Source: Escherichia coli
Lineage (GTDB): Bacteria > Pseudomonadota > Gammaproteobacteria > Enterobacterales > Enterobacteriaceae
Assembly (NCBI RefSeq): GCF_044647545.1
Contig: NZ_CP172818.1
Reading direction: 5' to 3' (one strand)
Length of the DNA stretch: 64,000 nt
A program made the position numbers and the translations under genes. Positions 9,274-10,551 of the stretch are shown in pieces (position 1 is the stretch's first letter; each line of letters opens with the position of its first letter). Below the pieces are notes generated by a model. It saw nothing but the letters and a program-made list of their open reading frames with translations, was not told the origin of the DNA and did no database searches.

Positions 9274-10551
9274 TCACTGCTCCTCTGCCAGCTCGGCAGC
9301 CTGATGTTGGCGCACGCGATTAAGCAATCCCGCCAGGGTGAAAACGACGATAACGCCCGCCACGACGGCTAACAGATGAAACGGCAAGCGACCGCCGTTA
9401 AACCACAGCCACCGGCCGATTTCGACCGAGACAGACATCACCATCAGGATCACCATATTCAGCGATGCGGAGACGGTCCCTTTCGGTAAGTTATTGGAAA
9501 ACAGCGTAAAGCGGAATAAGGTCGGGAAGATCAAACCAATCCCGAAAGCATACAAACTGGTGCCCAGCACCGACCACAGCCATACGTGCGGTGACAGCAG
9601 ATTGCCGATAATCAACAGCGCGAGGCCAACCAGTTGAATGGGTACGGCACGCCAGATAAAGCGCGGTTCGGTCGGATCTTTAACGAAACGCGCCACGATG
9701 GCATTCGCGACAATCACCGCGCCGAACACCGGAACCTGTGTCCAGGCGAACTGCGAGGTCGTTAAGCCGCCTGCGTCAATCAGGATCACCGGCGAGACAG
9801 CCACCCAACTCATCATTGGGATATAGCTTAAAGAGATGGTTGCTGCACCAAAGAGGAACTGCCGATTGCAAAAGACATTACGAAAATCGCGCAAGACGCT
9901 TTTGGCGCTAAATGAAACCGCGCCGCGCTTCACCGTCTCTGGCATCGCCAGCAGTAAGCCAACAAATGAGATAAAACCCATAATCGCAATGATGGCAAAA
10001 AGGACTTTCCAGTGTACAAAGTGCATCAGAGCTGCGCCGGAAAGCGGGCCGATAATCGGCGCAATCAGTACGATGGAGGTGATAATCGCCATCAACCTGA
10101 TCCCTTTTGTCTGGCCGAACGCCTCCTGCACCGTGACATAACCAACGGTGGCAATAAAACAGATACTGGTGCCCTGAATTGCACGCGCGATAAGAAACTG
10201 TGTCATAGACGTTGTGAACATTGTCGCAGCGCAGGCAAGGGTAAATATTAGCGCCCCGGTAATCAGCACCGGCCTGCGGCCAATCCTGTCGGAAAGCGGC
10301 CCCAGCAGCCACTGTAACGCCATACCGCCCGCGAGATAGAGACTGACGGCTGCCGGGGCCAGACTGACATCGGCATTAAAATCACGGACCACATTAATGA
10401 TCCCCGGCTGAATCAGGTCCGTCGACAGGTACGCGGCAAAATCATACAAAATCAACGCCATCGGGAAAAACAGCGGGGCTATCCTCTTTCTCAGGGGGGA
10501 AAGGGAGAAAGACGGAGAGGCCGCGCAGGGATCGGAGACCCGGAGGTGCAA
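9274..10551 (-). CDS. mdtM: multidrug efflux MFS transporter MdtM (YjiO); native homology stops near 10478, the first ~25 codons of this ORF are junction-derived
   Basis: ORF matches MdtM from [19 protein letters not shown] onward; the expected N-terminus MPRFFTRHAAT is absent and replaced by unrelated sequence. Confidence 0.8.

Follow-up and report, generated by a model that had tools for sequence, protein, structure and literature searches.

Apparent loss of the mdtM start codon and promoter in an Escherichia coli chromosome record, almost certainly a by-product of a G-saturated data artefact

RESULTS

Gene content of the locus

The window analyzed here, a stretch of 64,000 nt from an E. 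coli chromosome (contig NZ_CP172818.1, assembly GCF_044647545.1), carries the genes yjiL-yjiM-yjiN-mdtM and, beyond an anomalous block, yjiA-yjiX-btsT-tsr, continuing on to thrL (Table 1). The genes yjiN and yjiA are the anchors of the immigration control region (ICR), a known hypervariable island (PMC12707154), and the block fills exactly the variable slot of this defence island between them. Outside the block, the closest genomes were 99.99-100% identical to the window. The comparison with WP4-S18-ESBL-09 revealed a single mismatch (position 10476) in 10,479 nt on the left flank (1-10479) and none in 26,371 nt on the right (11425-37795; 100% identity), and SE15 showed one further difference, at 8353, across the left flank. 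The 945 nt of the block stand where the closest relatives have 1824 bp, comprising the first nine mdtM codons, a dienelactone-hydrolase (yghX-like) fragment within a yghX′-yghW′ duplicate, an IS1 pseudogene, brnT and brnA. This IS1/brnTA cargo was found in 30 of the 30 best-matching genomes, all identical on both flanks.

Table 1. Coordinates of the genes, the block and the other anomalous patches in the window
Feature	Position	Strand	Remarks
yjiN (DUF445), left-hand ICR anchor	7953..9233	-	Intact; downstream of mdtM
mdtM open reading frame (ORF)	9274..10551	-	425 aa; TTG start at 10551..10549
mdtM body	9274..10479	-	Codons 10-410 and stop; T11P from mismatch at 10476
5′ extension of the mdtM ORF, almost certainly spurious	10480..10551	-	24 codons with TTG start, read from the block
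Anomalous block	10480-11424		945 nt; 64.7% G overall
G-saturated part without homologue	10480..11296	none	Runs G116, G38 and G22
Degraded K-12-type mrr 3′ end and REP-like hairpin	11297..11424	+	Right edge of the block; 128 nt
yjiA (GTPase), right-hand ICR anchor	11431..12387	-	Intact; 100% identical to WP4-S18-ESBL-09
38-nt insert (AGCCGAGCCGAAGCGCACGCACGCAGCACAACGAGCCCC)	37796-37834		Beside REP-repeat region
Replacement patch	45138-45180		About 43 nt in place of 290 nt of the closest genome
relE/parE-family toxin gene, A-collapsed colinear copy	50680-51005		ORF destroyed
nadS-family antitoxin gene, 3′ part degraded	51168-51302		Lacks 27 bases and has 9 substitutions compared with WP4-S18-ESBL-09

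The mdtM reading frame and its left junction

The body of the ORF is MdtM beyond doubt. Its translation scored 843.5 bits against the NCBIfam MdtM equivalog NF011932 (curated whole-protein cutoff, 700 bits), in an alignment of ORF residues 22-420 that spanned positions 4-402 of the 402-position profile, and 115.3 bits against the Pfam family MFS_1 (PF07690; ORF residues 38-368), above the gathering threshold used (33.4 bits). The crystal structures of MdfA, whose fold is homologous to that of MdtM, could be aligned from ORF residue 26. From residue ~10 to residue 410, the product is the same protein as K-12-type MdtM (YjiO; WP_001137036.1), a DHA1-family MFS multidrug/H+ antiporter. Asp22, a functionally studied residue of MdtM (PMC3668916, PMC4785361), is also present, as is the internal ATG of the gene (Met16; 10461..10459).

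The original prediction, made from the letters of the window, was that identity to MdtM in this ORF begins only inside the N-terminus, and nucleotide comparison gave the same picture. From the mdtM stop codon through 10475, the DNA was identical to SE15 and WP4-S18-ESBL-09; position 10476 was mismatched (G for T), 10477-10479 matched the closest genomes, and similarity to the relatives was gone from 10480 on. At the codon level, the sequence is native from Leu12 onward, Thr11 is changed to Pro, Ala10 is retained, and all upstream codons are drawn from the G-rich block. The approximately 25 leading codons that had been assigned to junction sequence correspond to 24 codons of the block, or 24-26 more loosely counted. 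The proposed absence of the native start codon and promoter from the sequence text was likewise borne out: the window retains neither the native ATG of mdtM nor its ribosome-binding region or upstream DNA, and a scan of both strands from 10300 to 11700 revealed no sigma-70-like promoter, a null result that simply confirms the A+T-poor nature of the block. Compared with K-12 MdtM, the ORF thus has 24 block-derived codons in place of MPRFFTRHA and is without the ATG, ribosome-binding region and native upstream DNA. Comparison of the N-terminus with MdtM homologues agreed with this, since neither the K-12 N-terminus nor that of the window's lineage (WP_001339512.1) was found upstream of codon 10; identity to native N-termini of either type stopped at codons 10-12. 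An exact look-up in a collection of about 15 billion proteins returned no protein identical to the 425-aa fusion ORF.

Composition and content of the block

Within the block core (10560-11150), G accounted for 79.5% of the bases, and homopolymer runs of G116 (10998-11113), G38, G22, G17 and G16 were present in the block; elsewhere in the window, and over 130 kb of reference loci, the longest G or C run was 8. By chance, ~1e-62 G runs of at least 116 would be expected in a 64-kb sequence composed like this one. The G-richness lies on the plus strand throughout the block, with no C-rich part. A poly-proline ORF (10491-11171, minus strand; 226 aa) and a poly-glycine ORF (10546-11265, plus strand; 239 aa) are products of this composition and belong to no Pfam family. 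Unlike known ICR cargo, the block contains no restriction, toxin-antitoxin or other recognizable gene.

For homology, the block was divided into five segments, and both strands of each were locally aligned, alongside shuffled controls, to the SE15-type DNA that the block replaces and to the K-12 ICR in full. Over 10480-11296, the alignment scores against both targets and on both strands lay near those of the shuffled controls, with nothing interpretable. Only the segment at 11297-11424 scored clearly over its shuffles, and the block is therefore not demonstrable as a degraded copy of either ICR allele.

The right edge resembles a K-12-type mrr end

The segment at 11297-11424 matched the mrr-yjiA junction of 951 genomes at 84% identity (best, 84.7%), unlike the brnA end of the closest relatives. 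In the ~80 nt of mrr coding sequence, eight bases were deleted compared with two substitutions, and the frame was repeatedly broken; the deletions fell mostly in short homopolymers. The excess of deletions over substitutions is indicative of a technical error spectrum rather than evolutionary divergence. In its REP part, this edge looks like a mixture of the alleles of K-12 and SE15.

Since the mrr-like edge does not match the brnA end of the relatives, a real structural difference in the ICR of this strain may lie underneath: the damaged text would then hide other cargo, including an mrr-type gene beside yjiA and possibly much longer than 945 nt, which was left unassembled or averaged between alleles, as could happen in a mixed-strain or long-read consensus. 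The mdtM 5′ end might in that case be of the yghW type, of the K-12 type or disrupted. The allele blend in the REP part is consistent with this possibility, as are the positions of both block edges, which lie within ~6 nt of the divergence points of natural ICR alleles, and the tendency of short-read contigs of mdtM to terminate at the 5′ end of the gene. Against it stand the uniform IS1/brnTA cargo of the 30 best-matching genomes, the failure of the mrr-like edge to exceed 84.7% identity in any genome, and the alignment to the K-12 ICR, in which nothing resembling hsd, mcr or mrr turned up in the remaining 817 nt of the block. We consider a hidden ICR difference a tentative and somewhat unlikely addition, compatible with an artefactual origin of the block itself.

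The block is confined to a single record

None of the 5426 complete E. coli genomes contained the block at a coverage of 80% or more. With the left junction as query, matches stopped at 10479 in 4695 of these genomes. Exact scans of genome_contigs and metagenome_contigs for a 45-mer over the left junction came back empty, and so did a scan of genome_contigs for a 35-mer taken within the right edge. The native 410-aa MdtM was found on at least 1000 contigs in the protein collection. A 395-aa MdtM starting at Met16 occurred on eight contigs; these proteins were rejected as counterparts of the fusion in the window, being contig-end truncated calls and one IS1 insertion.

Other corrupted patches in the window

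Base-by-base comparison with WP4-S18-ESBL-09 revealed that the differences were clustered, and five patches in total, the G block and four more, were unique to the window. In the toxin gene at 50680-51005, there were 85 substitutions, with A as the new base in 58, and 24 missing bases, accompanied by runs of A30, A19 and T15, and the degraded nadS-family gene adjoins this patch. The 38-nt insert had no contiguous match in the 5426 complete E. coli genomes. The 290 nt replaced at 45138-45180 encode a small "sigma factor-like helix-turn-helix" gene in the closest genome, and the junction of this patch was absent from all complete genomes examined. Most of the patches coincided with DNA that varies among strains or is repeated in the relatives. 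Separately, two isolated differences from WP4-S18-ESBL-09, a 3-nt deletion at 55578 and a single substitution at 56010, may be ordinary strain variation.

The native 5′ end of mdtM differs among lineages

The K-12-type 5′ end of mdtM (MPRFFTRHAAT) was present in 4032 of the 5426 complete genomes. The initial observation that this N-terminus is missing from the ORF was right, but the K-12 form was the wrong reference, as the lineage of the window natively differs and is annotated with another 11-residue N-terminus (WP_001339512.1). In SE15, the 270 nt upstream from mdtM codon 10 consist of the yghX 3′ end and the yghW 5′ region (97.4% identical), whose source locus lies elsewhere in nearly all E. 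coli genomes. The duplicate occupies positions 4280-4549 of the SE15 locus (L001) and extends upstream from 23391 in that of WP4-S18-ESBL-09 (L003); it would occupy the window from 10479 onward if intact. The YghW N-terminus runs in frame into the MdtM residues ATLFFP in the SE15-type gene, with the upstream extension MNNHFGKGL; PGAP places the start of this gene at a later ATG (410 aa), and the yghW ATG is also in frame (419 aa). The join of yghW′ to mdtM lies at a CATGCCG microhomology beside the IS1 element, and the yghW-type 81-mer is present twice in approximately 666 genomes. The first seven to eight MdtM residues vary naturally among lineages.

The lineage of the window thus carries, natively, a yghW′-mdtM fusion with the yghW upstream region, and its N-terminus differs from that of K-12 because the duplicated yghW 5′ region was naturally fused to mdtM. 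Between codon 12 and the stop codon, the DNA of the SE15/WP4-S18-ESBL-09 chimera (WP_001339512.1) is identical to the window, and this is the allele from which the window derives. Upstream, the chimera has its 270 nt of yghX 3′/yghW 5′ sequence with a promoter region and an in-frame N-terminus, where the G block stands in the window; on its left side, the block begins at the exact end of the yghX′-yghW′ duplicate (L001 4280).

A genuine natural 5′ disruption of mdtM is present in one public sample. In a Logan contig (ERR3062239; L006, positions 1-60), the terminal inverted repeat of IS1 (CACTATCAGTAAGTTGGAGTCATTACC) abuts approximately codon 4 of a yghW-type mdtM. By analogy with this insertion, the 5′ end of mdtM in this strain might have been disrupted by a mobile element such as IS1, with the junk block superimposed, and the relatives do have an IS1 pseudogene 300 bp upstream. 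Neither edge of the block, however, carries IS1 terminal sequence, and identity is lost at codons 9-11 in the window rather than at the insertion point of the Logan contig. We judge such a disruption very unlikely.

DISCUSSION

Our comparisons indicated that the sequence at 10476 and 10480-11424 is, with a probability of roughly 93%, corrupted and non-biological, arising as a sequencing, consensus, assembly or data-generation artefact, and that the truncation of mdtM would be its by-product. Local corruption was embedded in otherwise reference-identical sequence at several sites in the window, with error spectra that were either collapsed to one base or dominated by deletions. In contrast to what a genuine ICR variant would display, the junctions and cargo of the block occurred in zero independent genomes or contigs of the collections searched, its composition was not E. 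coli-like, and it contained no recognizable genes. The letter-perfect flanks count against an artefact, as they suggest that the source was otherwise of high quality. The proposed course of events is simple: the artefact would have overwritten the strain-variable ICR cargo between mdtM and yjiA, with the corruption starting nine to eleven codons inside mdtM, so that the gene appears without its start codon and promoter, and the ORF finder would then have prolonged the mdtM frame into the junk as far as a chance TTG. In the organism itself, the 5′ end of mdtM is most probably intact, with the yghW-derived promoter and the MNNHFGKGL-type N-terminus of its lineage.

The limits of the block, its uniqueness to the window, its composition, its noisy edges and the recurrence of similar patches are observations, and we infer the technical cause of the block, as well as the sequence that truly underlies it, from comparison. 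In two-colour Illumina chemistry, the absence of signal is called as G and yields poly-G, and long-read consensus sequences or gap bridges can hold junk stretches; a literature search on poly-G assembly artefacts found no usable source. The block shares with homopolymer-junk artefacts its collapse to one base, decaying edges, deletion-dominated errors, location at a repeat or variable boundary and uniqueness to a single record, but differs from them in its G bias on one strand throughout, its error-free flanks and the presence of a second patch that collapses to A. Simple two-colour poly-G should place G at the 3′ ends of reads, so that the two sides of a false join would be G-rich and C-rich, respectively. 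As the sole cause it appears insufficient: the G bias keeps to one strand, another patch is collapsed to A, and the right edge has homopolymer deletions, which are untypical of Illumina data. A gap bridged by a poor long-read consensus, or by one mixing alleles, is a partial fit. It would account for the errors by deletion, for the right edge with its look of blended alleles and for the overlap with variable DNA, but does not obviously explain the G116 tract. The block may also have originated in silico. We likewise rejected dG/dC tailing and an engineered mrr-hsd-mcr deletion, as the flanks are those of a wild lineage rather than K-12, and nothing vector-like was found.

Taken at face value, the window would describe a strain in which a G-rich homopolymer insertion has replaced the ICR cargo together with the first nine to eleven mdtM codons, leaving the gene promoterless and 5′-truncated. 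The ORF is indeed open and in frame with mdtM and is preceded on its strand by yjiA, yjiX and btsT; the ICR is hypervariable (PMC12707154), and the yghW fusion and the IS1 insertion in the Logan contig attest that natural remodelling of the mdtM 5′ end exists. Against this reading, the block was absent from all collections searched, its edges decay noisily, the further corrupted patches in the window affect unrelated genes, and no coding or RNA signal was found. A G116 tract and ~600 nt at 80% G are, to our knowledge, without precedent in E. coli. Near-pure G of this kind would be highly unstable in replication. We consequently regard a genuine block as extremely improbable.

If it were nevertheless genuine, the strain would stably carry ~600 bp of near-pure poly(dG) instead of ICR defence cargo, and mdtM would be left without a promoter or a purine-rich ribosome-binding sequence, its sense strand being C-rich here. 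Translation could start only at the TTG or at the internal Met16 ATG, and transcription, if any, would depend solely on read-through from the co-oriented genes yjiX-yjiA. The conserved MFS core from LFFPMAL, including Asp22, would be intact; given this core and the natural variability of the first seven to eight residues, the defect would probably concern expression more than the protein. The suggestion that mdtM is a 5′-truncated fusion with abnormal expression if the sequence is real therefore stands for the sequence text, but the evidence argues that the block is not real. A block that is unique, compositionally impossible for E. coli and noisy at its edges, and that is one of five such patches, suggests that "5′-truncated fusion" describes the text rather than the organism.

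The mdtM truncation is thus almost certainly a data artefact rather than a biological event, and its value lies in quality control. Annotation of this record would yield an MdtM falsely described as truncated or fused, spurious poly-proline and poly-glycine ORFs called automatically as hypothetical proteins, and a falsely "empty" ICR, and the corrupted text would mask the brnTA and relE/parE toxin-antitoxin modules. Claims of efflux-pump loss or about the content of the defence island in this strain should be held back pending confirmation of the locus by reads. The sole biological outcome concerns the relatives rather than the window: in approximately one in eight E. coli genomes, mdtM appears to be driven by a duplicate of the yghW 5′ region, which suggests that the start and promoter regarded as "native" for this pump are lineage-dependent.
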